This document shows, one piece after another, positions 5,623 to 57,612 of a stretch of 64,000 nt of DNA. The first letter of the stretch is position 1, and the number at the start of each line of letters is the position of its first letter. The DNA is taken from contig JBAZNZ010000005.1 of the NCBI GenBank assembly GCA_041648975.1, positions 10,332 to 74,331 on the forward strand, read 5' to 3'. This DNA comes from Candidatus Omnitrophota bacterium. Its GTDB lineage: Bacteria; Omnitrophota; Gorgyraeia; 2-01-FULL-45-10. A program made the translations under genes and the position numbers. The notes under the pieces are model-generated. The model did not search any database. It saw only the letters and a program-made list of their open reading frames with translations, and was not told where the DNA came from.

Positions 5623-5646
5623 TGTTACCCCCTTAAATTGACTTTT

Positions 5647-5731
5647 AGTTGTAAGTTGTAAGTTGTAAGTTGTAAGTTTTAAGCGGTAAGTAAAAATTTT
5701 TATCTTACGACTTACAACTTATAACTTACTG
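5647..5731 (-). repeat. heptamer-repeat hairpin element (HRH-2), mlaF to mlaD junction
   Basis: (GTAAGTT)x4...GGTAAGT, A/T loop, then CTTACGACTTACAACTTATAACTTAC. Confidence 0.9.
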
Positions 5732-11205: not shown

Positions 11206-11232
11206 GTGTAACTACCCTCCGTCTCAAGTTTC

Positions 11233-11299
11233 AGTTATAAGTTATAAGTTTTTGGTTGTAACTAAATCGCTTACAACTTACGACTTATAACTTACAACT
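11233..11299 (-). repeat. heptamer-repeat hairpin element (HRH-3), mcsB to clpC junction
   Basis: AGTTATAAGTTATAAGTT, loop, then CTTACAACTTACGACTTATAACTTACAAC. Confidence 0.9.
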
Positions 11300-12353
11300 A
11301 TTTCAGTTTTTCCTTAACCAGATCCGCCCGCTTTATATCCCTCTCGCTGGGATTCAGCGTCTTGCCCCACAATTTCTGGAGATGGCCCGGTTGCGTCAAT
11401 ATGAATAGCTCGTTCACCATCCTCCTGTCGAGGTTCTTCACTATCCCCAGATCCACGCCGAGCCGTATAGCTGAGAGAAGCGTAACGGTCTCATTGCTCG
11501 TGATTATATGCGCGTTCTTCAGCGTCCCGTAGGCCCTGGAGATCCTGTCTACAAGGGCTTCTTTGGATCTCGTCAGTATCGATTTCCGCGTCGCGTCTTC
11601 CCTGGATATCAACTGGTTGGTCACCCTTTCGATATTGTCTATCGAGTCGGCTTCGGTTATACCCATGGCAACCTGGTTCGATATCTGGAAAATATTACCC
11701 ATGGCTTCCGTGCCTTCGCCGTACAATCCCCTGATATTCAATCCTAGTTTAGCGATCGCCTGCAGTACCTTGCCTATCTGCCCGGCGAAGACAAGCGCAG
11801 GCAGGTGCAGCATAGTTGAACATCTCAAACCTGTCCCTGTATTCGTGGGGCATGCAGTAAGGTATCCCCATCTTGCGGAATATGAGTAAGAAAGCTTCTT
11901 GCTTAAGTCCGTATCTATCTCGTCTATGATCCGCCAGCATTCGAGCAGGTTCAGGCCCGACTGCATGACCTGTATCCTTAAGTGGTCCTCTTCATTGACC
12001 ATTATGCTGACTATCTCTTTGGGATCGACGATTAGCGCCTTATACTCGACGTCTTTCGCGTGCTCCGGGCTCATCAGGTGCCGTTCCACCAACAGCATCC
12101 TATCGGTCTCGTTCAGGTCCTTCAACCGCAGGAACATGGCGTCTTTAAGAAAATTACATGACCTGGCCGCGTCCCTGACCGAACCGAGGATCTCCTCAAG
12201 CTGTTTCTTGTTCGCCCAGTTCGAGAACGGGACCTTATCGAGGTTCCTCGCCAGCCTTGTGCGGGACGACATAACTATGTTGGAGCTCGGTCCCGACCCC
12301 TTCAACCATTCGCAATTCTGTCCCAGGAAATCGTCCATCTTCACCCCGCCCAT
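11298..12353 (-). CDS. mcsB: protein arginine kinase McsB
   Basis: ATP:guanido phosphotransferase signature CPTNTGTGLR; lies between mcsA and clpC. Confidence 0.9.
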   Translation of the reverse strand: MGGVKMDDFLGQNCEWLKGSGPSSNIVMSSRTRLARNLDKVPFSNWANKKQLEEILGSVRDAARSCNFLKDAMFLRLKDLNETDRMLLVERHLMSPEHAKDVEYKALIVDPKEIVSIMVNEEDHLRIQVMQSGLNLLECWRIIDEIDTDLSKKLSYSYSARWGYLTACPTNTGTGLRCSTMLHLPALVFAGQIGKVLQAIAKLGLNIRGLYGEGTEAMGNIFQISNQVAMGITEADSIDNIERVTNQLISREDATRKSILTRSKEALVDRISRAYGTLKNAHIITSNETVTLLSAIRLGVDLGIVKNLDRRMVNELFILTQPGHLQKLWGKTLNPSERDIKRADLVKEKLK

Positions 12354-14417: not shown

Positions 14418-15116
14418 TTAAATAATTTTTCCGTCTCTCATCATGATGCCTTCGTCGGTCCGGCGGGATATTTTCTCGTCGTGGGTCACGATGGCAAGGG
14501 CCATCTTCGACCGCGATTTCAGGTCAAACAGGAGCTCATATATCGACTCACTGGTCTTTGAATCGAGATTGCCGGTCGGTTCGTCGCATAATAGAATTTC
14601 AGGTTCGTTGATAAGGGCTCTCGCAATCGCGACGCGCTGGGATTCACCGCCCGATAATTCGCCGGGCCTGTGGTTCGCCCTACGTTCCAACCCTACCGAT
14701 TTTAAAACTTCGCTCGCCCTCTCTTTGATAGCTGATAGCTGAAAGCTGAATGCCGACAGCTTTATCAGCGCCGGCATCATAACGTTCTCCAACGCAGTGA
14801 ACTCAGGTAAGAGATGGTAGAATTGAAAAACGAATCCCACCCTCTTATTCCTGATTCGGGACCTTTCTCTATCGGAAAGTCTGTAGATATCAATGCCGTC
14901 CATGGTGACTTTCCCTGATGTAGGCCTATCCAGACCTCCAAGTATATGCAGAAGCGTCGACTTCCCCGCGCCGGACGGTCCTATGATAGCTATTGATTTG
15001 CCGTTCTTTACGCTCAGGTCTATCCCGTTCACAGCCCGGACTTCTTTTGAGCCGTTCTTATACGCCTTATGCAGGCCATATCCCATTAATAATATCTTAT
15101 CCATAGTTATCCACAA
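14418..15116 (-). CDS. lolD: lipoprotein-releasing ABC transporter ATP-binding protein LolD
   Basis: GPSGAGKSTLL, LSGGESQRVAIARAL; adjacent to a LolC/E permease gene. Confidence 0.8.
   Translation of the reverse strand: MWITMDKILLMGYGLHKAYKNGSKEVRAVNGIDLSVKNGKSIAIIGPSGAGKSTLLHILGGLDRPTSGKVTMDGIDIYRLSDRERSRIRNKRVGFVFQFYHLLPEFTALENVMMPALIKLSAFSFQLSAIKERASEVLKSVGLERRANHRPGELSGGESQRVAIARALINEPEILLCDEPTGNLDSKTSESIYELLFDLKSRSKMALAIVTHDEKISRRTDEGIMMRDGKII
14727..14769 (-). repeat. AGCTGA-type heptamer-repeat element in-frame inside lolD
   Basis: GATAGCTGATAGCTGAAAGCTGAATGCCGACAGCTTTATCAGC encodes LSAFSFQLSA, an extra segment in the short linker region relative to E. coli LolD (LLIGKKKPAEINSRA). 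Confidence 0.6.
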
Positions 15117-16378: not shown

Positions 16379-16388
16379 ACTCCTTAGC

Positions 16389-16470
16389 CGTAAGCTATAA
16401 GTTGTAAGCTGTAAGCTATTTTTAAAACTTAATTTATTGCTTATAGCTTAAAGCTTATGGCTTAAAGCTA
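16389..16470 (-). repeat. heptamer-repeat hairpin element, TAAGCT variant (HRH-4), lysS to lolE junction
   Basis: CGTAAGCTATAAGTTGTAAGCTGTAAGCT, loop, then GCTTATAGCTTAAAGCTTATGGCTTAAAGCT. Confidence 0.85.
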
Positions 16471-17940: not shown

Positions 17941-19530
17941 TTATTCTCTTCCCTTCTTCGTTTCGATCACCTTCAGAAAAGCCCCGACCACTACAGGGTC
18001 GAATTGCGTGCCTGCGCCTTTCCTGATTATCTTTATGGCCTCTTTTTCGGAAAAGGCTTTTCGGTACGGCCTGTCCGATATCAGCGCCTGATAGACGTCC
18101 GCGACGGCGATGATGCGTCCGCCGACGGATATCTCCTCCCCCTTCAGTCCGTCGGGATAACCCTTACCGTCCCACCTTTCGTGATGGCGAAGGATCAGGG
18201 GGATGACATCGTGCAGGAATTGTATAGGCCTTATGATATCGACCCCTATCTGGGGATGTCTCTTTATCTCCTCATATTCCTTTTTTGTAAGGATGCCTTT
18301 TTTATGCAATATTTTTTCGCTTATCCCGACCTTACCAAGATCGTGCAGTATAGCCGCCCTCTTTATCCGCTCTATTTCGTGTTCAGGCAGGCGAAGCTCC
18401 CTGGCAATATCCGTAGCGTATAATACGGTCTTTTCCACATGTTTGCCCGTGTAGTTGTCTTTCAATTCGATCGTCTTGGCAAACGCGAATATCGCCTCGA
18501 TCAGGCTCTGGTTCGCGCGTTTGGTCAATTTATCTATCTTCTCTTTAAGAAAGCCTACATCCTCTTTAGTCTTACCGTTCTCATCATAAGACGGCGCGCA
18601 GGTCCTGAGGTCCAGGGACGAACATACTTTGTTGCCGCCGAATTCCTTGGACTTGTCCAATACCTCTTGAGCCAGGTTCAGCAGATCCGAAGGCCTGGTG
18701 ACACCGTCTTCCGGATATGACGCTACGGACAGGCTTATCCTGAGTTTCACAGACTGCTTCCTGTTCCCGAAATTCTGCAGGTTAGTGGCCTCGAGGATCC
18801 TATGGGCCAGGTTTATGACTCCGGTCCTGTAAGCTCCGGGTGCGACTATGACAAACTCTTCGCCGCCGTATCTGACGATCACATCATATCTGCGCAGCAC
18901 TTTCCTGAGATGGCCCGCAAATTGTTTCAGCGCCATATCACCGAACTGATGGCCATAGACGTCATTTATTGATTTGAAATAGTCTATGTCGACCATTATT
19001 ATCGACACGGGCTTCGATTCCCTCTTGGCCCTGGCAAACTCCGCCTCCATCGCGTCTTCGAGATAACGATGGTTATAGAGCCCGGTCTCGAAGTCCTTCA
19101 TCACCATCTGTTTCAGCCTGGCATTGGTCTTCGAAAGCTCCTTATTCAGCGCAACCACTTTCCCTTGCGCCTTCTTGAGCCCGGTGATATCGGTTATTAT
19201 AGCCTCTGCCATCTTTTCTCCCGTCACCGGATCTGCAGTAAGAAACGATTCGCTGATGACCCACCTGTCATCCCCTTTTAATGTCTTAAAATGGTATTCG
19301 TATCCGTGAACCTCGCCTTTCTTCAGAAGGATCTTCCTTAGCGCTTGCTCCGACTCCACATACACCATCATTTCCTTCAAAAGTTTGCCTTCCAGATCGG
19401 AAGCCTTGCAATCAAGGCCCAGGATATTCACAAACCCCTGGTTTGCCGAAATTATCCTGCCTTCGTCAAAAGAATAGCTCAATACACCGTCTTTGGTAAG
19501 TTCAAATAATCTCGAGTATTTTCCTGACAT
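17941..19530 (-). CDS. PAS-GGDEF-HD-GYP signalling protein (diguanylate cyclase / c-di-GMP phosphodiesterase)
   Basis: GGEEF motif (RYGGEEFVIV), HD (ILHDLGK) and GYP (HHERWDGKGYPDG). Confidence 0.9.
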   Translation of the reverse strand: MSGKYSRLFELTKDGVLSYSFDEGRIISANQGFVNILGLDCKASDLEGKLLKEMMVYVESEQALRKILLKKGEVHGYEYHFKTLKGDDRWVISESFLTADPVTGEKMAEAIITDITGLKKAQGKVVALNKELSKTNARLKQMVMKDFETGLYNHRYLEDAMEAEFARAKRESKPVSIIMVDIDYFKSINDVYGHQFGDMALKQFAGHLRKVLRRYDVIVRYGGEEFVIVAPGAYRTGVINLAHRILEATNLQNFGNRKQSVKLRISLSVASYPEDGVTRPSDLLNLAQEVLDKSKEFGGNKVCSSLDLRTCAPSYDENGKTKEDVGFLKEKIDKLTKRANQSLIEAIFAFAKTIELKDNYTGKHVEKTVLYATDIARELRLPEHEIERIKRAAILHDLGKVGISEKILHKKGILTKKEYEEIKRHPQIGVDIIRPIQFLHDVIPLILRHHERWDGKGYPDGLKGEEISVGGRIIAVADVYQALISDRPYRKAFSEKEAIKIIRKGAGTQFDPVVVGAFLKVIETKKGRE

Positions 19531-19531
19531 A

Positions 19532-22456
19532 TTATCTCATCTTCCTTATTTTTATACCGGTGCGCCTTTCTCTCTTTACGGGTTTTTTCGCCGGCGTCTC
19601 TTTTTTCAAAATTATCAACAGGGCGTCCACGACAAGCGGATCAAACTGTGTGCCGGCGCCGTTCTTTATTATCCTCATGGCCTCATTTTTAGGATACGCT
19701 TTCCGGTATGTGCGATTAGAGGTGAGCGCCTGATATACGTCGGCGATGGCTATTATGCGCGCTCCCATCGGTATTTCATCGCCTGCCATGCCGGCCGGAT
19801 AACCGTTACCGTCCCATCTCTCATGATGGTAAAGGACAAGCGGCACGATGTCATGCATAAATTGGACCGGCCTTATGATGTCGGCCGCTATCTGGGGATG
19901 TCTCTTTATCTCCTCATATTCCTTTTTACTCAGCTTCGACTTCTTATGCAGTATCTTGTCGCTTACGCCTATCTTCCCGAGATCATGCAGGACAGCCGCC
20001 TGTTTGATATTCTCGATCTCTTCCGGAGGCAGGTCAAGCACCTTCGCTATCTGGGTAGCGTAATGCACGGTCTTCTCCACATGCTCCCCGGTGTAATGAT
20101 CTTTCAGCTCGATCGTCCTTGCAAACGCGAATATTGATTCGATCAGGTTCTGTTTTCCGCGCTTGGTAAGTTTTTCTATCCTGTCTTTCAAGAACCGCAC
20201 ATCAGTGCTGGCGTTTTTTCCCTCATCATCCTTCTTCTCTTTATTTAAATTCTCCGAGGAATAGATACTATTCCCCCCGCTCTCCTTGACTTTGCTCAAT
20301 ATGCTGTCGGCCATGTTAACGAGATCCATCCCTATCATGATCTTGTCTTCAGGATACGCCGCTACGGCGACGCTCATCTTTAATCTTACGGAATGTTCCT
20401 TATCTCCGAAATTGTAAAGGTTGATGGCGTCCAGGATCCTCTGTCCGAGCGCAAACGCCTTATCCCTGGCTATTCCCGATGACAATATGATAAACTCCTC
20501 CCCTCCGAAACGGATCACTACGTCATACCTGCGGACCATCCTCTTCAGATAATGGGCTAGCTGTTTCAACACAAGATCCCCGAATTCATGTCCGTAAAGG
20601 TCGTTTATCGATTTGAAATAATCGATATCGAGCATTATAAGCGAAAGAGGATGACTATACCTCTTGGCCCGGTAGAACTCGGACTCGATCATCTCGCTCA
20701 AGTACCGATGGTTATACAGCCCTGTCTGCGTATCTTTCAGCGCCAATTGTTTCAGGCGTTCATTCGACTTAACAAGCTCGGCGTGCAGGTCCTCGCGCGA
20801 CTTTTCCGCTTCGGAGCGCTTAGTTATATCTTCCGCGAACCCGTAGAAATTCACGATATCGCCGCTTGCGTCCCGGTACGGCACAACCACGAGCCGGCAG
20901 CGGACGAATCTGCCGCTCCTGTGCACCATGTTAAGTTCCCTGTCGAAGATACCCTCTTTCGCGGCTGTGCGCAGGACCTCATCGGCGTCTTCCTTCGATT
21001 CATGGATATCCGCGGGCGTCAGCTTGCCTATCGCCTCCTCCGAGGTATATCCGAACATTTTCTCGGAATACTTGTTCCATATAGAAAACTTCCCGGACTT
21101 ATCAATGACGCCGATATGAAGCGGTATGTTTTCGGTCACCAGCTTATGTCTTTTGCCGCTCTCTGAAAGCGCGCTCGCAGCCTCTTTTACGTTTACTACC
21201 ATTTTCGCGTTTTCCAAAGCCACCGCGGCGCCTGCGGCCAATCCCTGAAGCATAAAGACATCCTGGGTATCAAAGGGACCATGGTCTTTCTTGTTATGCA
21301 TAGACAGGCATCCGAGAAGTTCACCGGAATACCCTATGATAGGGATATTTACAAGATTGTAAAAACCAAACTCTTTCCCTGCCTCGGGGAGAATATGAGA
21401 GTCATGCTCGGGATCATTCGCTATATAAGGCTTCATAGTATTAATGACCCAGCCTGCCACGCCGCTGCCCGGTCCGAATACATAATGTACAGGTTCTAGA
21501 CGCCCTCCCCTGTTATATTCATTAAATTCCATGACGCCGCCCGCTAAAAGGCCGGCTGTCCCCGCATTCGCTTCGACAAGCTCCATCGCTGCGGCGACAA
21601 GCGTCCGCAATATGACAGGCGCCTCAAGTATCTGGTTTATATGCTGACTCGTACGCGACAATATCTCCAACTGGTAATCTCGTTTAACCAGCGCGTCGGA
21701 TTCGAGCCTCCGCTCTTCCTCCACGCCGATGGCTGACGCGAGGATCCCTATTATCTTCTTATCTTCGACGCTCGGCACGTAATCGTACGTATATACCACA
21801 CAGAGCGAACCGACGCACGCCCCTCCAAACTTTACCGGATAACCCATATATGACTTGAGATTATATTGAGCTATATTAGGATCGGTCTTCGCGTATTCGC
21901 TGTCCTGGAGGTTCGGCATAAAAACAGCGTCTTCGCCACCGCCTTTTATGACGTCGTAGCATATATGGCCGTCGGGTTTACCGCTGGGGTTGAAACCGGG
22001 AGGCGTGTTCCACTGCCCGCACGAACACAGCAGGCCCTTTTCCAGCCTATTATAGAGGGCGGAGTCCGCGTTAAGAAGTTTGCCGCAAAGCGCTGTAAGA
22101 TGGTTTATGTTTTCAAGGGGCTCGGTCGTAAATGCCAAAAATGCCTCATTTATCGCCTCCAGCCTCTGTTCAGTCTGTTTACGTTCGTCTATGTCGCGCA
22201 CCATCGCCAGAAGCCTGTACCTGCCGCCTATAACCGCGCGCTTGAGATTTACCTCGACCCAGAAGAGCCTTCCCAGTTTGTCTCTCGCAAGCCATTCAAA
22301 TATTTGAGGCTCGTCGTCAGCCGCTTTTCGCATGAACTTCATCGCCTCATCCTGAGTAAACGGTTTTTCTCCGGCGCTCAAGGCATGGACGCTCAGATTA
22401 AGCATCTCCTCCTTGGGATAGAAATACATCTCACAGGTCTTATTATTGACATCCAC
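19532..22456 (-). CDS. PAS-GAF-PAS-GGDEF-HD-GYP signalling protein; the N-terminal PAS is truncated by an apparent frameshift, and the called start is a GTG
   Basis: RFGGEEFIIL, VLHDLGK, HHERWDGNGYPAG. The C-terminal half is paralogous to the 17941-19530 gene. Confidence 0.9.
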   Translation of the reverse strand: MDVNNKTCEMYFYPKEEMLNLSVHALSAGEKPFTQDEAMKFMRKAADDEPQIFEWLARDKLGRLFWVEVNLKRAVIGGRYRLLAMVRDIDERKQTEQRLEAINEAFLAFTTEPLENINHLTALCGKLLNADSALYNRLEKGLLCSCGQWNTPPGFNPSGKPDGHICYDVIKGGGEDAVFMPNLQDSEYAKTDPNIAQYNLKSYMGYPVKFGGACVGSLCVVYTYDYVPSVEDKKIIGILASAIGVEEERRLESDALVKRDYQLEILSRTSQHINQILEAPVILRTLVAAAMELVEANAGTAGLLAGGVMEFNEYNRGGRLEPVHYVFGPGSGVAGWVINTMKPYIANDPEHDSHILPEAGKEFGFYNLVNIPIIGYSGELLGCLSMHNKKDHGPFDTQDVFMLQGLAAGAAVALENAKMVVNVKEAASALSESGKRHKLVTENIPLHIGVIDKSGKFSIWNKYSEKMFGYTSEEAIGKLTPADIHESKEDADEVLRTAAKEGIFDRELNMVHRSGRFVRCRLVVVPYRDASGDIVNFYGFAEDITKRSEAEKSREDLHAELVKSNERLKQLALKDTQTGLYNHRYLSEMIESEFYRAKRYSHPLSLIMLDIDYFKSINDLYGHEFGDLVLKQLAHYLKRMVRRYDVVIRFGGEEFIILSSGIARDKAFALGQRILDAINLYNFGDKEHSVRLKMSVAVAAYPEDKIMIGMDLVNMADSILSKVKESGGNSIYSSENLNKEKKDDEGKNASTDVRFLKDRIEKLTKRGKQNLIESIFAFARTIELKDHYTGEHVEKTVHYATQIAKVLDLPPEEIENIKQAAVLHDLGKIGVSDKILHKKSKLSKKEYEEIKRHPQIAADIIRPVQFMHDIVPLVLYHHERWDGNGYPAGMAGDEIPMGARIIAIADVYQALTSNRTYRKAYPKNEAMRIIKNGAGTQFDPLVVDALLIILKKETPAKKPVKRERRTGIKIRKMR

Positions 22457-22656: not shown

Positions 22657-22814
22657 GAATGTATTTATCCTTATTAATTGCTAATAGTATAATAGAGTAT
22701 ACTATCTGGATCCTAATAAGTCAAATGGGACAGGAAAAAGCTGATTGAGCGGCTATTTGATATTTAATTAAAAATGATTTGACTTTTTAACATATATTAT
22801 GTTACCCTGCCGTA

Positions 22815-23426
22815 ATGAAAGCAGGAGATAATGGCAGGGACGAAAAACTTATAGACGCCTGTCTGAAAAGAGACGCAGCCGCATGGGCCTTATTTGTGGA
22901 AAAATACTCCGGGCTCGTCTCAACTTCTATCACAAACCGTTTGAAGAAATACGGGCTGGCGCTTGCGCATCAGGAGATAGAGGACATTCGGCAGGACGTC
23001 TTCACGTCCATATGGAGTGGCGATAAACTCGGGAGCGTAAAGAACCGTAAGGCCATATCGTACTGGCTCTCTATAGTTTCCGGTAATACGGCGCTCGAAT
23101 ACATGCGAAGCAAACTCCGGAAGGAACCTGTAAAGCCTCTATCTATATCCGACAAGATAGGCGAAACCGAACTGGCGGGGCTGATCCCCTCTTCGGGACC
23201 ATCTCCTTATAAAAAGCTGGAAATAGACACTATCGTATCAGGGATAGAATCGGCCATAGAATCGCTTGGCGGAAAAGATAGATTGATAATGAAATTAAAT
23301 ATCCTGTATGACAAGAAGCATGAAGAGATTGCGGAAATATTGAATATTCCAGCCGGGACTGTCTCATGCTACATAAAGAGGTCCAAGGAAATATTGAGGA
23401 GAAAATTGCGGGATTTGATGGAGTGA
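22815..23426 (+). CDS. ECF-type RNA polymerase sigma factor
   Basis: Sigma-70 region 2 (DIRQDVFTSIW) and region 4 (HEEIAEILNIPAGTVSCYIKRSK); about 200 aa. Confidence 0.85.
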   Translation: MKAGDNGRDEKLIDACLKRDAAAWALFVEKYSGLVSTSITNRLKKYGLALAHQEIEDIRQDVFTSIWSGDKLGSVKNRKAISYWLSIVSGNTALEYMRSKLRKEPVKPLSISDKIGETELAGLIPSSGPSPYKKLEIDTIVSGIESAIESLGGKDRLIMKLNILYDKKHEEIAEILNIPAGTVSCYIKRSKEILRRKLRDLME

Positions 23427-23442
23427 AAAAATGTTAAAATAG

Positions 23443-23484
23443 TTGCAAGAAAATCCCGATTTTTACCGTCTTATATAGTGGGGG
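23443..23484 (+). promoter_or_regulatory. conserved 41-nt promoter-like motif, copy 1 (between the ECF sigma and anti-sigma genes)
   Basis: TTGCAAGAAAATCCCGATTTTTACCGTCTTATATAGTGGGG. Confidence 0.5.
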
Positions 23485-23493
23485 GCTAAAAGA

Positions 23494-23516
23494 TATAAGT
23501 CGTAAGTTATAAGTTA
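23494..23516 (+). repeat. half heptamer-repeat element (5' arm only) just upstream of the anti-sigma RBS
   Basis: ATAAGTCGTAAGTTATAAGTTAT followed by ATGGAGG and the ATG. Confidence 0.7.
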
Positions 23517-23528
23517 TATGGAGGAAAG

Positions 23529-23975
23529 ATGATAGATATAAAAAGTCATACGACCCATCCGACAGACGTAGAGCTTGCCGGCTTCCTCGGCAACTCGCTC
23601 GCCGCTGACGATAGAAAACGCGTTGAAACTCATATCTACGGGTGCGAGGAATGCCTTGCCAGGGTCGTTTCAGCTTATGAATCGGTCAATTCGTTCAACA
23701 AGAAAGGTCTGCCTAAAAAAAGAAAGGGTAACATTATGAATAGGATAAACCTCTATTTCGTGCTGGCCGCTATATCGTTCGCACTGTCTTTCGCGGTCCC
23801 CAGGTACTTCCTGCAGTTACTGGCAGCTACTCTGCTTTTGGGGGCAAAGTGGATAGCCGATTCAAAAACGACAAAGATGCTCGTAATGATCCATGAGGCA
23901 TGGAAAAACGGCGGCGGAAGAGAAGCTTCCAGAGTGCTAGAAAAGTTTGAATCGGCGTATAAGGGAAGGTTATAG
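23529..23975 (+). CDS. putative membrane anti-sigma factor (zinc-binding HxxxCxxC type)
   Basis: HIYGCEEC motif, one TM helix, immediately downstream of the ECF sigma gene. Confidence 0.6.
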   Translation: MIDIKSHTTHPTDVELAGFLGNSLAADDRKRVETHIYGCEECLARVVSAYESVNSFNKKGLPKKRKGNIMNRINLYFVLAAISFALSFAVPRYFLQLLAATLLLGAKWIADSKTTKMLVMIHEAWKNGGGREASRVLEKFESAYKGRL

Positions 23976-24498
23976 ATTATCAATGGAGAAAGCCGAAAGA
24001 TGACTGATATCTTAAATCGACGCCATCAATATGTATCTTTCGGCATAAATTCGGCCTAACGGTCAAACATCACAAACAACTTATGTTCGCTAACGCTCTA
24101 TAAGTTGTGGCCTCATTTAAGAAAAAGGCCCAAGTCTATTTAGGCTTGGGTCAGTTCCTGAAGAAGGTATACCTTCCGCTTTTCAGCGGCTTGAGATCGA
24201 TCTATGCGAGAAGAAGATCTCAAAACCGGCAAAGCGTCTTTCAATCGCCCCCTTTGAGGTTAATGCCGATCGTGATACGGCCGCCCTTTCGGGTGACCAT
24301 CCGGCTTCTCCGTAGAAAAGCCGTACTTCTTTCGTTCAATCGACCACTCTCCCTTCTTCTAAATAAAGTATAACACACCCTCAGCAATTTTCAATAGCCG
24401 GCGCTCTTCCTATTTTATTATTAACAAAATAGTTATTTAAACAAACATTGCCTCGGTCGGAGACCTCGGCACACGGCAAATAGACTTTTTTAAAAAAC

Positions 24499-24539
24499 TT
24501 GCAAGAATTTTGGCGATTTTACCGTCTTATATAGTAGGG
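24499..24539 (+). promoter_or_regulatory. conserved 41-nt promoter-like motif, copy 2 (upstream of spoVG-yraN-comM)
   Basis: TTGCAAGAATTTTGGCGATTTTACCGTCTTATATAGTAGGG; shares the ACCGTCTTATATAGT core with copy 1. Confidence 0.5.
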
Positions 24540-24564: not shown

Positions 24565-24828
24565 ATGATAAAAGATGACCTGAAGCTGGAGGTATCAAGG
24601 CTGCACAAGCTCGACGGCAGCGGCGCGACAAAGGCGTTTTGCGATATCTCAATATTCGGCAGCCTTGTGATAAACGGCCTGCGCGTTGTCGAGGGAAAGG
24701 ACGGCCTCTTTGTAAGTATGCCCAGAGAGGAAGGCAAAGACGGAAAGTGGTACAACACCGTGATACCGTTGAACAGGGATGTAAAAGATGAGATAGAAAA
24801 GGTCGTATTGGAGGCTTACGGAGGGTAG
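24565..24828 (+). CDS. spoVG: SpoVG family protein
   Basis: MIKDDLKLEVSRLHKL...ISIFGSLVINGLRVVEGKDGLFVSMP is colinear with B. subtilis SpoVG. RBS GGAGGGAGG lies upstream; the ORF track begins at an upstream GTG (24556). Confidence 0.8.
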   Translation: MIKDDLKLEVSRLHKLDGSGATKAFCDISIFGSLVINGLRVVEGKDGLFVSMPREEGKDGKWYNTVIPLNRDVKDEIEKVVLEAYGG

Positions 24829-24832
24829 ATAG

Positions 24833-25207
24833 ATGGGCCGCGAGAAGAAGATAGTCGGCGCGATCGGGGAAAAGGTCGCGATAAAGTTTTTAAAGGATAA
24901 AGGTTATAAGATCCTCGAAACCAACTATCGCACCACATTCGGAGAACTGGATGCGATAGCTAATAAAGACGGCTTAATGATCTTTATCGAAATAAAAACA
25001 CGGGCTTCTTCTTCTCTCGGCCCTCCCTATCTCGCGGTTACGGCATTAAAAATTCGGCACATAATAAAGAACGCGCTCTATTACCTGAAGCTGCGCGGCC
25101 GCGTATTTTGCGACTGGCGGATCGATGTCGTATCTGTAAAATTAGGACCCGATAATAAAATCGAATCGATAGAATTAATCGAAAACGCGGTTTGCGACAA
25201 CTACTAA
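24833..25207 (+). CDS. yraN: YraN family (UPF0102) endonuclease
   Basis: GELDAIA...IFIEIKTR pattern; 124 aa; upstream of comM as commonly seen. Confidence 0.8.
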   Translation: MGREKKIVGAIGEKVAIKFLKDKGYKILETNYRTTFGELDAIANKDGLMIFIEIKTRASSSLGPPYLAVTALKIRHIIKNALYYLKLRGRVFCDWRIDVVSVKLGPDNKIESIELIENAVCDNY

Positions 25208-25217
25208 GGAGAAATTT

Positions 25218-26750
25218 ATGATAGCAAGGATATTTTCAAGCGGCATCGCCGGCATAGACGCATATGAGGTCACCGCAGAAACCGATATCGGCGGAGGTCT
25301 GCCGCAATTCAACATAATAGGCCTGCCCGACACCGCGATAAAAGAATCTCGCGACAGGATTAAATCCGCGATCAGGAATTCCGGTTTCGTATTTCCCTCC
25401 AAGAAGATAACGGTAAACCTCGCCCCTGCCGACAGCAGGAAAGAGGGCGCGTCCTTTGACCTGCCCATAGCCCTTTCTATCCTGGCTTATGAAGGCGTGA
25501 TCGATTGTTCGGCGCTGGCCGACTTCGTATTCTGCGGCGAGATGTCGCTGGACGGAAAATTGAAGCCTGTTAAAGGGTCCCTCTCGATAGCGATGGGCTT
25601 AAAAGCCATGGGTAAGGCCAGGCTTGGACTGCCAAAAGCTAATATTAAAGAAGCCGGAGTGGTAAAAGGTATCGAGGTCTATCCTTTGGAGACGCTTAGA
25701 GATACCGTAGCTTTCATAAACGGTAAATTAAAACTGTCTGCCTATTCCGCGAACAGCGAATGCGCGACAAAAAAAACTCCCAGATACAAAGTGGATTTCA
25801 ATGACGTAAAAGGCCAGGAACACGCGAAACGCGGCCTGGAAGTCGCTGCCGCAGGCGGCCACAATGTAATGCTGATCGGTCCCCCCGGTTCCGGAAAGAG
25901 CATGCTGGCCAAACGCCTTCCTACGATATTATCCGACATGACACTCGAGGAAAGTCTTGAGACATCTAAAATCCACAGCGTAGCAGGCTTACTGTCTCCC
26001 AACAAAGGACTGATCTGGGCCCGTCCATTCAGGTCGCCGCACCATACCATATCCGACTCGGCGCTCGTCGGCGGCGGGACGAATCCGACACCAGGAGAAA
26101 TAAGTCTGGCACATAACGGCGTATTGTTCCTCGATGAGCTTCCTGAATTCAAAAAGAACGTACTGGAAGTATTAAGGCTGCCTATTGAAGACGGTTCGAT
26201 AACTATATCTAGAGTCGCCAGGACCCTGACATACCCTTCGAAGTTCATGCTCGTGGCGGCAATGAACCCCTGCCCGTGCGGAAATTTTACAGACCCGAAG
26301 CGTGAGTGCCACTGCACTCCTATTCAGATACAGCACTATCTTTCGAGGATATCGGGGCCGCTTCTCGACAGGATAGATATTCACCTCGAGGTGCCGAGAT
26401 TAAAGGTGGAGAACCTGACGGATAAGCGGCGCGGTGAACCGTCCGAGGATATCAGGAAACGGGTCGATGAGGCACGAACGCTACAAAGACAGCGCTACAA
26501 GACCGATGCCGTATACTTCAACGCGCACCTCGAGCCAAATGAATTGGAAAGATACTGCGTCCTCGACAGAGAGAGCGAAGAATTGCTAAAGCTAGCGATA
26601 TTGGAGCTTGGTCTATCGGCCAGGGCATACGACAAGATACTCAAGGTTGCCCGAACGATCGCCGACCTGGATCATAAAGACGTGATCGAAGCCCATCACA
26701 TATCAGAGGCTATCTCTTATAGAAGCCTGGACCGCAATTTATGGGGATGA
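25218..26750 (+). CDS. comM: Mg-chelatase-like AAA+ ATPase YifB/ComM
   Basis: Lon-like N-domain, Walker A GPPGSGKSMLAKR, C-terminal ChlI domain; 510 aa. Confidence 0.9.
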   Translation: MIARIFSSGIAGIDAYEVTAETDIGGGLPQFNIIGLPDTAIKESRDRIKSAIRNSGFVFPSKKITVNLAPADSRKEGASFDLPIALSILAYEGVIDCSALADFVFCGEMSLDGKLKPVKGSLSIAMGLKAMGKARLGLPKANIKEAGVVKGIEVYPLETLRDTVAFINGKLKLSAYSANSECATKKTPRYKVDFNDVKGQEHAKRGLEVAAAGGHNVMLIGPPGSGKSMLAKRLPTILSDMTLEESLETSKIHSVAGLLSPNKGLIWARPFRSPHHTISDSALVGGGTNPTPGEISLAHNGVLFLDELPEFKKNVLEVLRLPIEDGSITISRVARTLTYPSKFMLVAAMNPCPCGNFTDPKRECHCTPIQIQHYLSRISGPLLDRIDIHLEVPRLKVENLTDKRRGEPSEDIRKRVDEARTLQRQRYKTDAVYFNAHLEPNELERYCVLDRESEELLKLAILELGLSARAYDKILKVARTIADLDHKDVIEAHHISEAISYRSLDRNLWG

Positions 26751-26754
26751 GCGA

Positions 26755-26792
26755 TTATCCACAGAGTAGCCGACGTTTAAACGTCGGCTACT
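26755..26792 (+). repeat. DnaA-box 9-mer plus REP-A hairpin (left end of the ORF77 unit)
   Basis: TTATCCACA-GA-GTAGCCGACGTTTAAACGTCGGCTAC immediately after the comM stop. Confidence 0.9.
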
Positions 26793-26814
26793 ACCAATAT
26801 AAGGAGATAAAACG

Positions 26815-27048
26815 ATGAATACAGCTACGCCTTTATCTAATATAGCTAAAGTGTATGGAAAAAATGCTGTGGTTTCCCTTGTAAATGGCTATAGCATAAT
26901 ACATCTGGATAATCCTACAGATGAACAGATAAAGCAAAGGATTAAAGAAGTACTTGAAGGACACATTGATGATGACCTCGAAGACGATTGTCCGCTTTGC
27001 CAGGAGATGAAAGGCAAACCGTACGACATCGTCTACTACAAACAATAA
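26815..27048 (+). CDS. hypothetical small protein carried inside a REP doublet
   Basis: 77-aa ORF with an AAGGAG RBS, bounded by a REP-A hairpin (26767-26792) and a REP-B hairpin (27060-27086); no recognisable family. Confidence 0.4.
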   Translation: MNTATPLSNIAKVYGKNAVVSLVNGYSIIHLDNPTDEQIKQRIKEVLEGHIDDDLEDDCPLCQEMKGKPYDIVYYKQ

Positions 27049-27059
27049 CCCAACTCTCA

Positions 27060-27097
27060 GTAGGGGATGTTTAAACGTCCCCCTACATTGTGGATAA
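27060..27097 (+). repeat. REP-B hairpin plus inverted DnaA-box 9-mer (right end of the ORF77 unit, abutting the RAYT start)
   Basis: GTAGGGGATGTTTAAACGTCCCCCTAC-AT-TGTGGATAA. Confidence 0.9.
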
Positions 27098-27100
27098 CTT

Positions 27101-27592
27101 ATGGGAAATATAAAACGATTTTACGAAATAAATGCCGCTTATTTCCTGACTACTAATACGGAAAATAATCAAACCATATTCAGCGACCCTAAAAATTGCA
27201 AAATACTTCTCGTTACACTTGAATATTTCAAGCTTGTCCTGGACTACCGCCTGTACGGCTTCTGCATTATGCCAGATCATTTACATATTGTGATACATCC
27301 CGTCGGCATATATAACTTTTCATACATTATGAAGATGATAAAAGGTTCTTTTACAAGAAAGCTAAACAAGGCTAATGGCAAAACGGGTAAGATTTGGCAG
27401 AAAGGATTTTACGATGAATATATCAGAGACGAGCTGCACCTTGTGAAGGTATTGGAATATATACATAACAATCCATTAAAAGCAAGATTAGTTGTGGAGC
27501 CTGAAGAATATCCTTTTTCGAGCTATAATCACTATTTTCAAACTACTTGCCAATCAAACCAAATCATTGAAATTGACAAGCCTGTATTATAA
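27101..27592 (+). mobile_element. REP-associated tyrosine transposase (RAYT; IS200/IS605-like Y1 HUH transposase)
   Basis: HUH motif HLHIVIHP, catalytic Tyr context YIHNNPLKARLV; flanked on both sides by GTAG...CTAC REP hairpins. Confidence 0.85.
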
Positions 27593-27594
27593 AG

Positions 27595-27675
27595 TTATCC
27601 ACAGAGTAGCTGACGTTTAAACGTCAGCTACTACTAGGTAGGGGAGGTTTAAACCTCCCCTACTAGTGTGGATAA
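27595..27675 (+). repeat. REPIN-like doublet: DnaA-box, REP-A, REP-B, inverted DnaA-box (downstream of RAYT)
   Basis: TTATCCACAGAGTAGCTGACGTTTAAACGTCAGCTAC-TACTAG-GTAGGGGAGGTTTAAACCTCCCCTAC-TAGTGTGGATAA. Confidence 0.9.
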
Positions 27676-27734
27676 CCCATCAAACTTAATCGTGATTACA
27701 GGCAAATATGGCGAATTAATGTGGCAATTCCGAA

Positions 27735-27840
27735 GGTATCCAGGACGATCGCCGACCTGGACCATAAGGACGTGATCGAAGCCCATCACATATCAGAGGC
27801 CATATCTTACAGGAGCCTGGACAGGAATTTGTGGGGCTAA
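27735..27840 (+). pseudogene. orphan duplicate of the comM 3' end (last ~32 codons plus stop)
   Basis: Encodes (K)[34 protein letters not shown], identical to the comM C-terminus apart from A to S. The DNA differs from 26645-26750 at about 20 positions, nearly all synonymous. Confidence 0.75.
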
Positions 27841-54837: not shown

Positions 54838-56292
54838 TCAGGACGCGCCTATGCCGAAGAGCACGACCGGTACCGTCTTAAATAATATTTTGAAGTCAAG
54901 TCCCAGCGACCAATTGTCGATATACTGCAGGTCGAGCCTCATCCATTCCTCAAAACCTATCTTATTCCTTCCGCTTATCTGCCAGATGCATGTTATGCCG
55001 GGCCTCATCGACAGGCGCCTGCGCTGCCACGGCTCATATTGCGACACCTCTTTAGGGATCGGCGGACGGGGCCCGACGAGGCTCATCTCGCCTACGAAGA
55101 CGTTGAAGAGTTGAGGAAGCTCATCTATGCTGAATTTCCTTAGGAGCTTACCGAGCGCCGTGACGCGCGGATCGTTCTTCATCTTGAAGACCGGCCCCTT
55201 CATCTCGTTCTTCTCCACCAGTTCCGAGAGCCGCTCGTGCGCGCCCTTCTGCATCGACCGGAACTTGTAAAGTATAAAACGCCTTCCGTTCAAACCGACT
55301 CTCTTCTGTAAATAAAACACCGGCCCGGGAGACGTCAATTTTATCAATAACGCCGTTATTACCAGGATCGGGCTAAGCGCTATAATGCCCAAACCCGACA
55401 CGATGATATCAATGGCCCTCTTGATAAATAACTCCCATTCCTGCGCTATCGTGGTCTCAAAAGATATCAAGGGAACGCCGTCCAGCTCGGTCTGGCGCGC
55501 CTTGGCTATCTTCAGGTCAAACAGGTCTATGGCGATCGTCGTCTTGACGCCTTGAGTCTCGCAAACATACAGCGAATTCTCTATAGCGGTAAGCTTGGAT
55601 CTCGGGATCACAAATACAACCTCGTCTATAGTGCGGCCGCTAAGTATCTTTGGTATATCGTCGAGCATACCTATTACCTTGCTGCCGTCCACTGCCTTGC
55701 CCATGTGGGACTCTTCATATTCGATGACGCCTACTATCTTAAAGCCCCACTCCGGGTGATTATTGATCTTGCCCATGAATTGCAGGGCGCGTTTTCCGGT
55801 CCCGACGATAAGAAGCCTCCTGAAATTATAACCCTGTTTTCTCACATAGCGCATTATCGAAAAGATCGCCACCTTCTCGGCGATCACGGCCATCGAGCTT
55901 AATGCCAGAAATATGGCAAAGAAGCCGCGGCTTACGAACCTCAATTTAAGCAAGAAGGCCGCCGCGCCGAATATTATAGCGGTAAGAAAGACGGATTTAA
56001 GTATGATGAATAGGACTTCAGTAAGCTTCTTGGTGCGCAGGCTCTTATACATTCCGTTCGCGTAAAGCGAAAAGCTCCATATCGGAATCACGAAAAAAAG
56101 GACTATCAGATAATCGCTTATGGATAGGTCGCTTGCGTCGGCAAATACCCTGACGAAAGGTATCAAATCGAATTTATACAAGACGTGGAAATACTGGCGA
56201 AGGAAGAAAGAGATGAAAAATACGAACGCTACGATGAATATGTCAAATATTATCATCGCCCTTCGAATTACTTCCTCTTTCTCACGCAGCAT
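54838..56292 (-). CDS. undecaprenyl-phosphate hexose-1-phosphate transferase (WbaP/polyprenyl glycosylphosphotransferase)
   Basis: Five-TM N-domain plus a C-terminal bacterial sugar transferase domain (FYLQKRVGLNGRRFILYKFRSM). Confidence 0.9.
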   Translation of the reverse strand: MLREKEEVIRRAMIIFDIFIVAFVFFISFFLRQYFHVLYKFDLIPFVRVFADASDLSISDYLIVLFFVIPIWSFSLYANGMYKSLRTKKLTEVLFIILKSVFLTAIIFGAAAFLLKLRFVSRGFFAIFLALSSMAVIAEKVAIFSIMRYVRKQGYNFRRLLIVGTGKRALQFMGKINNHPEWGFKIVGVIEYEESHMGKAVDGSKVIGMLDDIPKILSGRTIDEVVFVIPRSKLTAIENSLYVCETQGVKTTIAIDLFDLKIAKARQTELDGVPLISFETTIAQEWELFIKRAIDIIVSGLGIIALSPILVITALLIKLTSPGPVFYLQKRVGLNGRRFILYKFRSMQKGAHERLSELVEKNEMKGPVFKMKNDPRVTALGKLLRKFSIDELPQLFNVFVGEMSLVGPRPPIPKEVSQYEPWQRRRLSMRPGITCIWQISGRNKIGFEEWMRLDLQYIDNWSLGLDFKILFKTVPVVLFGIGAS

Positions 56293-56349: not shown

Positions 56350-57612
56350 TTATTTCTTCATGATAATAGCCGCATACACGGTAAATAATAGCATATTTGC
56401 GGGTATGTGGAAATTAAAATCAATCAGGCCGTGAAGCGCCAGGCTCAATACGCCTGCGGCGCATCCGACGGAGCGAAGACTATTACGTGCTTCTTTAGTA
56501 AATCCCGTCTTTATGATCACGACAAAGATCCAGAGCATTAGAAAAGGCGCCAGCAGGCCCATCTCCGCGGCCATCTGCAGATAGTCGTTATGCGCGGCAT
56601 TTGCCAGGGCAACGAGGCCCTCGGGCCGGAAACGCGGGAATCCCCAGATGAACGTCCCTATTCCGGTACCTATCGCCGGATTATGAATTATCATGTCAAC
56701 GCTGCCTTTCCATATCTTTAGGCGCGTTCCGTCAAAGAGGTCGGCGCCGTAAGGCGCATAAGCAAGTTTTAGCCTGTCCGATATCGTCTCTCTGCCTAAA
56801 TATACGAATGAGAATATTATCATCAGGACGAGAATAAATATAAGTATGCTCTTAATATTTATTGTCCTTCTCTTCCTTATGACGAGCATCATGACGATCA
56901 ATGATACGCCCATACTAAGCCATGCGCCGCGCGATTGGGCCAATATAAAAGCGGAGGCCATAAATATCAATGCTGTCACCAGAAATACTCTATGGTCCTT
57001 CGCCACGCGGACATCCCCTTTCAACCGAGACATCTGGTTGAATAACTCGGCTATAGCGACCGGCATAGCGAGTTCCAGGTAGCCGGCAAAGTGGTTATGA
57101 TTTACATAAGTTGATGCGAGAAAATCCTGCGGAATCCACCATGAATGGGGCAGCGTTCCGAAATATTGAAAAAGTCCGTATAGCGAAAGACACCCGCCCA
57201 TGGATATGATGAGATATATCAGGCGTTTAACCATTTGTCCGTCAAATTCATTGATGATCACGTAATACACCCCTATGTATCCTAAAAGCCTCAAGAGGGC
57301 GTAAAAACTGTCATGTTTGTATATGGAGAAGACGAATGATATGGCGGCCAGGACCGTTAAGAGCAGGATGGGCAGATCGATGGAATTAGTTGTAAGTCGT
57401 AAGTTGTAAGTTGTAAGTTTGGGTTTTGCAGGGTTCGGGGAGACATTGACAACCTTAAAAAGCCACAGAAATATGATGATAAGCTCGACGAGCAGGATCG
57501 GCGTCATCGCCCATAGCCGGACAGATGCGCCTCTGGCTATCGGCGAAAATATGAGTATCGCCGCCAGCAGTATCCACAAAAGCTTTTTATACACCCTATA
57601 CTTTTTTACCAT
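56350..57612 (-). CDS. O-antigen ligase/polymerase family membrane protein (Wzy_C/WaaL-like)
   Basis: About 10-12 TM helices with a large periplasmic loop carrying the Wzy_C-like region; an in-frame heptamer-repeat insertion sits in the N-terminal loop. Confidence 0.7.
   Translation of the reverse strand: MVKKYRVYKKLLWILLAAILIFSPIARGASVRLWAMTPILLVELIIIFLWLFKVVNVSPNPAKPKLTTYNLRLTTNSIDLPILLLTVLAAISFVFSIYKHDSFYALLRLLGYIGVYYVIINEFDGQMVKRLIYLIISMGGCLSLYGLFQYFGTLPHSWWIPQDFLASTYVNHNHFAGYLELAMPVAIAELFNQMSRLKGDVRVAKDHRVFLVTALIFMASAFILAQSRGAWLSMGVSLIVMMLVIRKRRTINIKSILIFILVLMIIFSFVYLGRETISDRLKLAYAPYGADLFDGTRLKIWKGSVDMIIHNPAIGTGIGTFIWGFPRFRPEGLVALANAAHNDYLQMAAEMGLLAPFLMLWIFVVIIKTGFTKEARNSLRSVGCAAGVLSLALHGLIDFNFHIPANMLLFTVYAAIIMKK
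57388..57419 (-). repeat. half heptamer-repeat element inserted in-frame in the O-antigen-ligase-like CDS
   Basis: On the minus strand AACTTACAACTTACAACTTACGACTTACAACT encodes ...[13 protein letters not shown]... within a loop region. Confidence 0.8.

Follow-up and report, generated by a model that had tools for sequence, protein, structure and literature searches.

What reads a promoter-like motif that stands twice beside a sigma factor gene? The question arises in a 64,000-nt stretch of a Candidatus Omnitrophota genome (contig JBAZNZ010000005.1, positions 10,332 to 74,331; hereafter the window), in which a 41-nt motif lies once between the genes of an extracytoplasmic function (ECF) sigma factor and its putative anti-sigma factor and again, about 1 kb further on, before spoVG. 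A first-pass annotation of the sequence had proposed that both copies are promoters of the local sigma factor, which would thus control its own anti-sigma factor and a spoVG-yraN-comM transcript. Our follow-up makes it probable that the copies, here termed P1 and P2, are promoters of the ECF class, to which RNA polymerase is directed by the sigma factor encoded at 22815 to 23426, because TGCAAY and CGTC stand 17 nt apart, an ECF sigma gene and an anti-sigma gene lie beside them, and none of the motif sites listed precedes another sigma gene. We infer promoter activity, transcription start sites, the reading of the motif by this sigma factor, and the nature of the signal from sequence comparison.

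A duplicated motif and the sigma/anti-sigma genes beside it

The two copies (23443 to 23483 and 24499 to 24539, both on the + strand) aligned without a gap. Positions 1 to 9 (TTGCAAGAA) were identical in both, positions 10 to 18 differed except for one common T, and positions 19 to 41 (TTTTACCGTCTTATATAGTRGGG) were identical save one R. The 37-nt pattern TTGCAAGAA-N9-TTTTACCGTCTTATATAGT matched the window twice (0.00 matches expected from 100 dinucleotide-preserving shuffles), and the 15-mer ACCGTCTTATATAGT also occurred exactly twice, bearing out the duplication that had been reported. The sole other near match, at 54872 with two mismatches, was dismissed as chance; it lacks the TTGCAA block and falls within a minus-strand open reading frame (ORF). 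Likeness between the copies ended at the motif borders, with unrelated flanks on either side, indicating conservation of two blocks rather than a segmental duplication. The copies are no recent duplication and, as shown below, very probably no dispersed repeat.

Gene coordinates confirmed the placement of both copies. P1 sits in the 102-nt gap between the sigma gene and a gene for a 148-aa HxxxCxxC protein, and the end of P2 is 26 nt from the spoVG ATG (24565). The proposed -35 element is TGCAAG in each (23444 to 23449 in P1, 24500 to 24505 in P2) and the proposed -10 element CGTCTT (23467 to 23472 and 24523 to 24528), followed in P1 by TATAGT and a G-run. Each copy is preceded on the same strand by an A/T-rich block: GAAAAAATGTTAAAATAG at 23426 to 23442 before P1, which is UP-element-like and whose positions -17 to -1 are conserved in 94 metagenome sites (see below), and ATAGACTTTTTTAAAAAAC at 24482 to 24498 before P2, recognized from the sequence and from the same conservation. 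CGTC starts 17 nt after AAG, within the 16 to 17 nt first given, and the distance from TTGCAA to the start of TATATA is 23 nt, which had rightly been called too wide for sigma70. Since transcription usually starts 6 to 9 nt after CGTC, we predict start sites near 23477 to 23481 for P1 (∼50 nt before the anti-sigma ATG) and near 24533 to 24537 for P2 (∼30 nt before the spoVG ATG). A covariance-model search against Rfam found only two tRNAs at gathering score in the window, neither overlapping the motif region, and nothing credible between 23900 and 24600 (anti-sigma to spoVG) at E values up to 10.

The 203-aa product of the neighboring gene (22815 to 23426, +) is, judging from its profile matches, a true ECF (group 4) sigma factor. 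It scored 64.5 bits against the sigma70-ECF model TIGR02937 (cutoff, 42.9; residues 23 to 198) and matched Pfam Sigma70_r4_2, and a profile of 17 homologues matched the structures of SigW, AlgU, and RpoE (E ∼1e-14), with SigW the best-scoring solved relative. No equivalog-level NCBIfam model reached its cutoff, so the protein has no named ECF subgroup there. An identical protein is encoded in the NCBI metagenome-assembled genome (MAG) GCA_028715235.1 (Candidatus Omnitrophota) and on an 82-kb ENA contig; homologues at 36 to 56% identity came from Omnitrophota/Omnitrophica wherever the source names an organism.

The sigma gene itself appears to be transcribed from its own sigma70-type promoter (22779 to 22808, +), consisting of TTGACT (22779 to 22784), an 18-nt spacer, and an extended -10 element, TGT-TACCCT (22800 to 22808). 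This promoter ends 6 nt before the ATG (22815), where a Shine-Dalgarno sequence is absent, and the sigma mRNA is therefore predicted to be leaderless. The same layout, TTGACx-N17/18-(TG)nTAcccT, was found just 5' of the sigma start in six related loci (L006, L010, L011, L013, L014, and L018). Canonical sigma70 promoters (TTGACx-N16-18-TATAAT) also precede other genes in the window, suggesting that the motif is not the housekeeping promoter type of this organism. Nor does the motif offer TTGACA and TATAAT at 17 ± 1 nt, its TTGCAA-TATATA spacer being 23 nt. We rejected a sigma70 reading, as a sigma70 scan gave no + strand site upstream of either the anti-sigma gene or spoVG.

The 148-aa protein encoded next to the sigma factor (23529 to 23975, +) has the features of a zinc-binding anti-sigma factor (ZAS) and is predicted to bind its neighbor as the cognate partner. 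Its residues H10, H35, C39, and C42, in the pattern H35xxxC39xxC42, were invariant in 17 orthologues, and zf-HC2 (PF13490) was detected in all 17 (best E, 8e-8), with the protein of the window itself reaching only E = 0.037. Residues 8 to 47 weakly matched RslA and ChrR, and two hydrophobic membrane helices are predicted. After the helices follows a C-terminal tail (residues ∼100 to 148; 23826 to 23972) with the consensus KWIxDSKSTKMLVMIYEAWKxGGEKEASRIL, which is the most conserved part of the protein, above the sigma-binding domain, and has no relative in Pfam, NCBIfam, or the PDB. PDB profile matches of the tail to designed repeat proteins were discarded as spurious. The tail is a candidate sensing or partner-binding module.

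Conservation of the motif and its wider set of genes

A scan with the sigma alignment, keeping one genome per species, yielded 17 Omnitrophota loci (L005 to L021) whose sigma factors are 36 to 54% identical to that of the window. Where the contig allowed, gene order was a GGDEF/HD gene on the opposite strand, then sigma, anti-sigma, spoVG, yraN, and comM. P1 stood in the gap between sigma and anti-sigma genes at 13 of these 17 loci and was absent from one subclade (L008, L012, L016, and L017), whose two genes stand much closer together; P2 was present before spoVG in every locus long enough to show the spoVG upstream region. At all 25 P1 and P2 sites, block spacing was invariant: TTGCAA always occupied positions 1 to 6 and CGTC (or CATC) positions 25 to 28, with positions 13 to 18 free. 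The combination expected of an ECF promoter, an AAC-containing -35 and a CGT-containing -10 element 16 to 17 nt apart, was thus found as TGCAA(C/T/G)-N17-CGTC. In one genome (L018), P2 was reduced to GTGCAAT-N17-CGTCTT, without T-tract or TATA, a decay that shows which parts are indispensable. Several genomes had the sigma stop codon inside the -35 block (TTGCAATAA). Whichever of CGTC and CATC a genome had in P1, it also had in P2 (14 of 14 genomes), and a position weight matrix (PWM) at >16 bits gave no further site on either strand in 237 kb of sigma loci. The occurrence of P1 and P2 at orthologous positions in such divergent loci supports the proposal that the local sigma factor controls both the anti-sigma gene and spoVG-yraN-comM; likewise, conserved sites, fixed spacing, and a genuine ECF sigma factor strongly favor the ECF-type over the sigma70 reading, as first suggested.

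An independent sample came from six Omnitrophota recA loci (19 to 21 kb each) that were retrieved by the RecA protein alone. The motif preceded recA or ORF6N-recA in all six. Five had a PWM match of 24 to 43 bits before recA or before a small inserted gene (ORF6N, or 23S_rRNA_IVP in L145), and this was the only match of the locus. The sixth (L147) gave no PWM match and instead carried a relaxed core, CTGCAAC-N16-CGTCTTTATAG, before ORF6N-recA, with an N16 spacer unlike the N17 found elsewhere, and a second relaxed site before another ORF6N gene. The MAGs that hold sigma loci L006 and L018 also supplied two of the recA loci, L146 and L147. In the degenerate lineage, seen in the L018 P2 and at the sites of L147, GCAAY and CGTCTT are retained and the T-tract is lost. 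Where the motif stood directly before recA, a canonical TTTACA-N18-TATAAT promoter lay between the two, suggesting that recA has constitutive and motif-type promoters in tandem. This arrangement was observed in L148 (7978 to 8115), L149 (9852 to 10001), and metagenome loci L064, L068, L118, L131, L135, and L144; the TTTACA-N18-TATAAT promoter is embedded in a conserved CGCTTTACAGAAAGGAGG...TATAAT stretch that at first looked like a ribosome-binding site.

We also scanned JGI metagenome contigs, blind to taxon, with the pattern TTGCAABAA-N9-TTTT-NN-CRTCTTWWW and obtained at least 129 sites on at least 120 contigs. At least 99 of these were full sites, in which TATA and a G-run followed although neither was part of the search pattern; the block spacing of these sites was fixed by the pattern. 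The 30 matches without TATA and G-run were rejected as chance, lying within long open frames (median stop-free frame over the motif, 386 codons, versus 64 codons for the 99 full sites listed). Among those 99, 93 had a co-oriented ORF with a Shine-Dalgarno sequence whose start lay 14 to 250 nt downstream; none was within reach of the other 6, most of which sit where a contig ends. In some P1 sites, the G-run also serves as the Shine-Dalgarno sequence of the anti-sigma gene; in other sites it lies 100 to 250 nt from the start codon. Among the 94 unique full sites listed, conservation extended upstream as AAA.TATTTTAAAAaA.T at -17 to -1, a block that the search pattern likewise did not demand, and downstream to position 42.

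Counting the first gene 3' of the motif among the full sites listed, ORF6N followed at least 21 sites, Y1 transposase-like genes at least 20, SpoVG at least 11, anti-sigma at least 10, RecA at least 6, N6/N4 DNA methylases at least 5 to 6, and DUF1016/YhcG nucleases and BNR-like secreted proteins at least 2 each; BrnT, Gp49/HigB-like, and Phd-like genes followed a single site each among the matches listed. A RecA from a motif-bearing contig fell into the same 90%-identity cluster as NCBI Omnitrophota RecA proteins, and one 85-kb contig (L094, L096) carried the sigma locus with P1 and P2 together with a third site before an antitoxin gene. P1 or P2 made up 21 to 23 of the 99 full sites listed, about one fifth, from which we estimate roughly 10 strict sites per genome. 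Some ten promoters per genome would be roughly the typical size of an ECF regulon. By these counts, the putative regulon is wider than two sites and includes recA.

The abundance of these sites raises the alternative that a dispersed repeat or a miniature mobile element was copied to many places and that the motif is a piece of it, with no promoter role. At least 99 copies in metagenomes, many beside Y1 transposases, ORF6N, and toxin-antitoxin genes, would fit such an element, as would a window rich in other repeats (REP-like palindromes and heptamer hairpins). Yet the 64-kb window holds two copies only, and ∼300 kb of related loci gave no extras outside the sigma and recA positions. Sites were orthologous across genomes whose proteins are only 40 to 55% identical, which argues that selection maintains them, and they consist of two conserved blocks around a free spacer rather than showing uniform repeat identity. 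Instead of many copies in either orientation independent of gene starts, we found the 99 full sites listed to be intergenic, and those with an ORF within reach were oriented toward its start codon. The first-pass annotation had named a dispersed repeat in nonpromoter contexts as grounds for abandoning its proposal; the additional copies proved to be gene-proximal and co-oriented with the downstream gene. The motif has no terminal repeats, and none of 2.9 million viral contigs contained a match, on which ground a viral origin was also rejected. We therefore regard a dispersed repeat as very improbable.

Several observations nevertheless weigh against the reading of P1 and P2 as promoters of the adjacent ECF sigma factor. 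No copy was found upstream of the sigma gene by PWM in any of the 17 loci, so that the usual signature of an autoregulatory ECF pair seems to be missing. Most genomes have C or T as the third base of the AAC-type -35 element; the G of the window is unusual for ECF promoters. In the sigma alignment, no column separated CGTC from CATC genomes, leaving the pairing of sigma and promoter without support from covariation; this comparison proved uninformative, as the CGTC/CATC switch arose several times, even between sigma factors 87% identical. Conservation over ∼60 nt, with a near-palindromic TATTTTAAAATA upstream and the TATA and G-run downstream, goes beyond the minimal need of an ECF sigma factor. 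Finally, an inverted copy of CTTATATA follows at variable distance in about a quarter of sites.

The first and third of these points would also be expected if another alternative sigma factor, encoded elsewhere, read the motif and the adjacent sigma/anti-sigma pair were only one of its targets. Against this stand the roughly one fifth of strict sites listed that fall at this one locus, and the finding that none of the 99 full sites listed precedes another sigma gene, a position in which an autoregulated ECF sigma factor would be expected to have one. The sigma-P1-anti-sigma-P2 linkage was counted as conserved in the 17 genomes (P1 itself in 13), and there is a precedent for a sigma-dependent promoter dedicated to the cognate anti-sigma gene alone (PMC3489674). 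Positive autoregulation is frequent among ECF sigma factors but not universal (PMC3489674). A distant sigma factor thus seems unlikely to us. As for the word autoregulatory in the first-pass annotation, it stood with respect to feedback through the anti-sigma factor and failed with respect to the sigma gene, which has no motif copy before it in any locus.

The last two points bear on a different alternative, that the motif is an operator-promoter unit in which the housekeeping sigma factor would use TATAGT, TATATA, or TAGTAT as the -10 element together with a GGG discriminator, and TTGCAA and the palindrome TATTTTAAAATA would be activator or repressor sites in a class-II-like position ∼40 nt before the start, for instance for a DNA-damage regulator. 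Conservation through the TATA box and G-run to position 42, a near-palindromic upstream block, and the palindromic TTGCAA are consistent with this, and recA, nucleases, and mobile elements resemble SOS-type regulons, which are usually under repressor control. The downstream inverted copies of CTTATATA, considered as an operator or a hairpin, were ∼3.5-fold enriched over shuffled controls (32 of 121 sites; ∼9 expected), but not over a control that swapped downstream regions between sites, and they lie at distances between 4 nt and at least 16 nt, a spread ill suited to a dimeric operator. In P1, the -10 region at 23467 to 23476 (CGTCTTATAT / ATATAAGTCG) recurs inverted at 23493 to 23502, 16 nt downstream. 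Moreover, TTGCAA lies 23 to 24 nt from the TATA box with no conserved -35-like hexamer at 17 nt, and CGTCTT, which would be mere spacer, was conserved as much as TTGCAA in sites chosen by position alone. The L018 P2 retained GCAAT-N17-CGTCTT after its TATA box had gone. We consider an operator-promoter unit quite unlikely. The overlong conservation suggests that an additional regulator may bind at the same promoters as the ECF sigma factor.

The spoVG-yraN-comM operon and other features of the locus

Downstream of P2, spoVG (24565 to 24828; Pfam SpoVG), yraN/UPF0102 (24833 to 25207; Pfam UPF0102), and comM (25218 to 26750; Pfam Mg_chelatase/ChlI) form an operon on the + strand (24565 to 26750) with intergenic gaps of 4 and 10 nt. 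The order spoVG-yraN-comM was kept in all 11 genome loci that reach comM (L006, L007, L008, L010, L011, L014, L015, L017, L018, L019, and L021).

Between the anti-sigma gene and spoVG, we noted a candidate noncoding RNA gene of ∼245 nt in antisense orientation (24118 to 24362, −), with a putative promoter at 24367 to 24394 (TTGAAA-N16-TGnTATACT) and an intrinsic terminator at 24128 to 24145. Its minimum free energy was -95.6 kcal/mol (z = -5.5), with a long closing stem. The candidate was kept at the same position in L061, L006, L010, L011, L094, L089, L012, and L018, showed compensatory changes at 24 of 50 predicted pairs, and had no Rfam match at E values up to 10.

Two kinds of repeat were also noted in the window. 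Many intergenic regions (2029 to 2127, 5645 to 5729, 11217 to 11301, 16384 to 16450, and 57372 to 57434) contain long hairpins made up of tandem (TAAGTTR)n heptamers followed by the same heptamers inverted, and a half-copy at 23490 to 23516 places one arm in the anti-sigma 5' leader, directly after P1. REP-like palindromes, GTAGCTGACGTTTAAACGTCAGCTAC and GTAGGGGAGGTTTAAACCTCCCCTAC, occur around 26753 to 27665 and also at 15105 and 56310; they flank a 77-aa ORF (ORF77; 26815 to 27048) and a REP-associated tyrosine transposase (27101 to 27592; NF047646, 124.5 bits). The last ∼104 nt of comM (26643 to 26746) recur at 27733 to 27836 with 88% identity, as if the ORF77-transposase cassette had inserted into the end of comM. 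The pair of ORF77 and Y1 genes also followed comM in L006 and L010; in L018 the Y1 gene was present and ORF77 was not detectable.

On the other side of the sigma gene, and divergent from it, lie two adjacent paralogous PAS/GAF-GGDEF-HD(HD_5) genes (17941 to 19530 and 19532 to 22456, −), which share a 300-nt stretch at 75% identity. This neighbor was kept beside the sigma locus in many relatives. At the recA loci, giant genes stood beside the cinA-ligT/recA cluster (L145, 1 to 7281; L147, 1 to 6709; L149, 1 to 7816; and L150, 1 to 7898), with called products of 3,291 to 10,714 residues.

A proposed circuit and its relation to known systems

Taken as an ECF promoter, the conserved site would comprise an A/T-rich upstream block, the -35 element TGCAA(C/T/G), a 17-nt spacer with a terminal T-tract, the -10 element CGTCTT, an A/T-rich melting region, and the G-run, with transcription probably starting in or just before the latter. 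The sigma factor would be made from its sigma70-type housekeeping promoter; no terminator was found between the sigma and anti-sigma genes, so some read-through into the latter is likely. The membrane-anchored zinc-finger anti-sigma factor would then keep the sigma factor inactive until a signal frees it, whereupon P1 would fire, more anti-sigma would be made, and the response would be shut off. Because the motif stands before the anti-sigma gene only and not before the sigma gene, the circuit would be one of negative feedback through the anti-sigma factor. The freed sigma factor would also fire P2, and thereby spoVG-yraN-comM, as well as the same promoter before recA (often ORF6N-recA-recX) elsewhere in the genome; REP-type Y1 transposases, ORF6N genes, DNA methylases, and toxin-antitoxin genes are further proposed targets. 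Such a small regulon would be centered on DNA recombination and mobile DNA, and its predicted content points to recombination, repair, and mobile DNA rather than envelope stress.

It is conceivable, though we hold the idea only tentatively, that in this Omnitrophota lineage the sigma/anti-sigma pair acts as master switch for a recombination or competence-like program, which would be induced through the membrane-anchored zinc anti-sigma factor with its new, conserved cytoplasmic tail. If so, that program would join recA-recX, spoVG-yraN-comM, REP-type transposases, ORF6N proteins, DNA methylases, and toxin-antitoxin genes and couple domesticated REP transposase activity to the same signal. In function it would correspond to the SOS or ComX regulons, driven by an ECF sigma factor in an uncultivated phylum of nano-sized bacteria. 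Omnitrophota are abundant as well as uncultivated; the locus offers a concrete sigma-promoter-anti-sigma triplet with a sharp consensus as well as a first regulon map, drawn from sequence alone, in which recA, the recombination helicase ComM, and SpoVG are predicted to be under an alternative sigma factor. For practical purposes, it supplies predictions of transcription starts and operon limits with which Omnitrophota genomes can be annotated, a promoter/sigma part that is probably orthogonal and of use in synthetic biology, and a handle on the signal that switches on recombination and mobile-element genes in these bacteria. Full-text searches of the literature turned up neither a paper on the promoters or ECF sigma factors of Omnitrophota nor anything relevant to a link between ECF sigma factors and spoVG.

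Among known systems, the SigH-RshA pair of Corynebacterium glutamicum shares the architecture proposed here. SigH promoters are of the GGAA...GTT type; the Omnitrophota pair has a different promoter consensus and belongs to an unrelated phylum. In C. glutamicum, the sigH-rshA circuit was shown by experiment (Busche et al. 2012, PMC3489674): the sigma gene is expressed from housekeeping promoters, a separate sigma-dependent promoter serves only the downstream ZAS gene, and the resulting feedback shuts the response off, in a regulon that includes SOS DNA-repair genes (PMC3489674). RshA, however, is a soluble redox sensor, whereas for the Omnitrophota anti-sigma factor two membrane helices are predicted, with the conserved C-terminal tail after them. 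The two also differ in regulon, that of C. glutamicum responding to thiol and heat stress and that of Omnitrophota comprising, by prediction, recA, comM, spoVG, and mobile-element genes.

In promoter design, the closest likeness is to the sigmaM, sigmaX, sigmaV, and sigmaW promoters of Bacillus subtilis, which also have two blocks, an AAC-type -35 element, a CGTC -10 element, and spacer T-tracts (PMC5758882). The sigmaV promoter is GCAAAC/CGTC, CGTC being a -10 element common to sigmaM, sigmaX, and sigmaV, and a T-tract near the -35 element modulates ECF promoters (PMC5758882). In the Omnitrophota sites, by contrast, the T-tract lies by the -10 element and not only by the -35 element, and conservation extends to the upstream A/T block and the downstream TATA and G-run. 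The Bacillus sigma factors, moreover, are positively autoregulated from a promoter before the sigma gene and control envelope-stress genes.

Streptococcal ComX (sigmaX) is a small alternative sigma factor that induces recA and DNA-processing genes, and spoVG of B. subtilis is a classic sigmaH-dependent gene (SigH family of Firmicutes). The Omnitrophota system resembles these in linking an alternative sigma factor with recA and DNA-processing genes or with spoVG, a likeness by function alone. The cin-box (TACGAATA) and the sigmaH promoter (RNAGGAWWW/GAAT) both differ from the Omnitrophota motif, and ComX and SigH-family sigma factors are not known to be controlled by ZAS proteins. Unlike with ComX, DNA-uptake genes were not seen among the Omnitrophota targets. 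A further comparison concerns the A/T-rich block. The UP element consensus of sigma70 promoters, which Estrem and colleagues are said to have described in 1998, is reportedly AAAWWTWTTTTNNNAAA, and the conserved AAA.TATTTTAAAAAA directly upstream of the -35 element is like it; unlike it, the block lies ∼3 to 4 nt off the Escherichia coli register and is near-palindromic, so that it could be a protein-binding site instead.

Taken together, these comparisons show a system assembled from parts of known kinds: an ECF sigma factor, a ZAS, and an AAC/CGTC promoter. Apart from positive autoregulation, every testable feature of such systems was found in the Omnitrophota locus. What is new is the lineage, the sharply conserved and extended promoter, the predicted regulon, and the membrane anchor and conserved tail of the anti-sigma factor.

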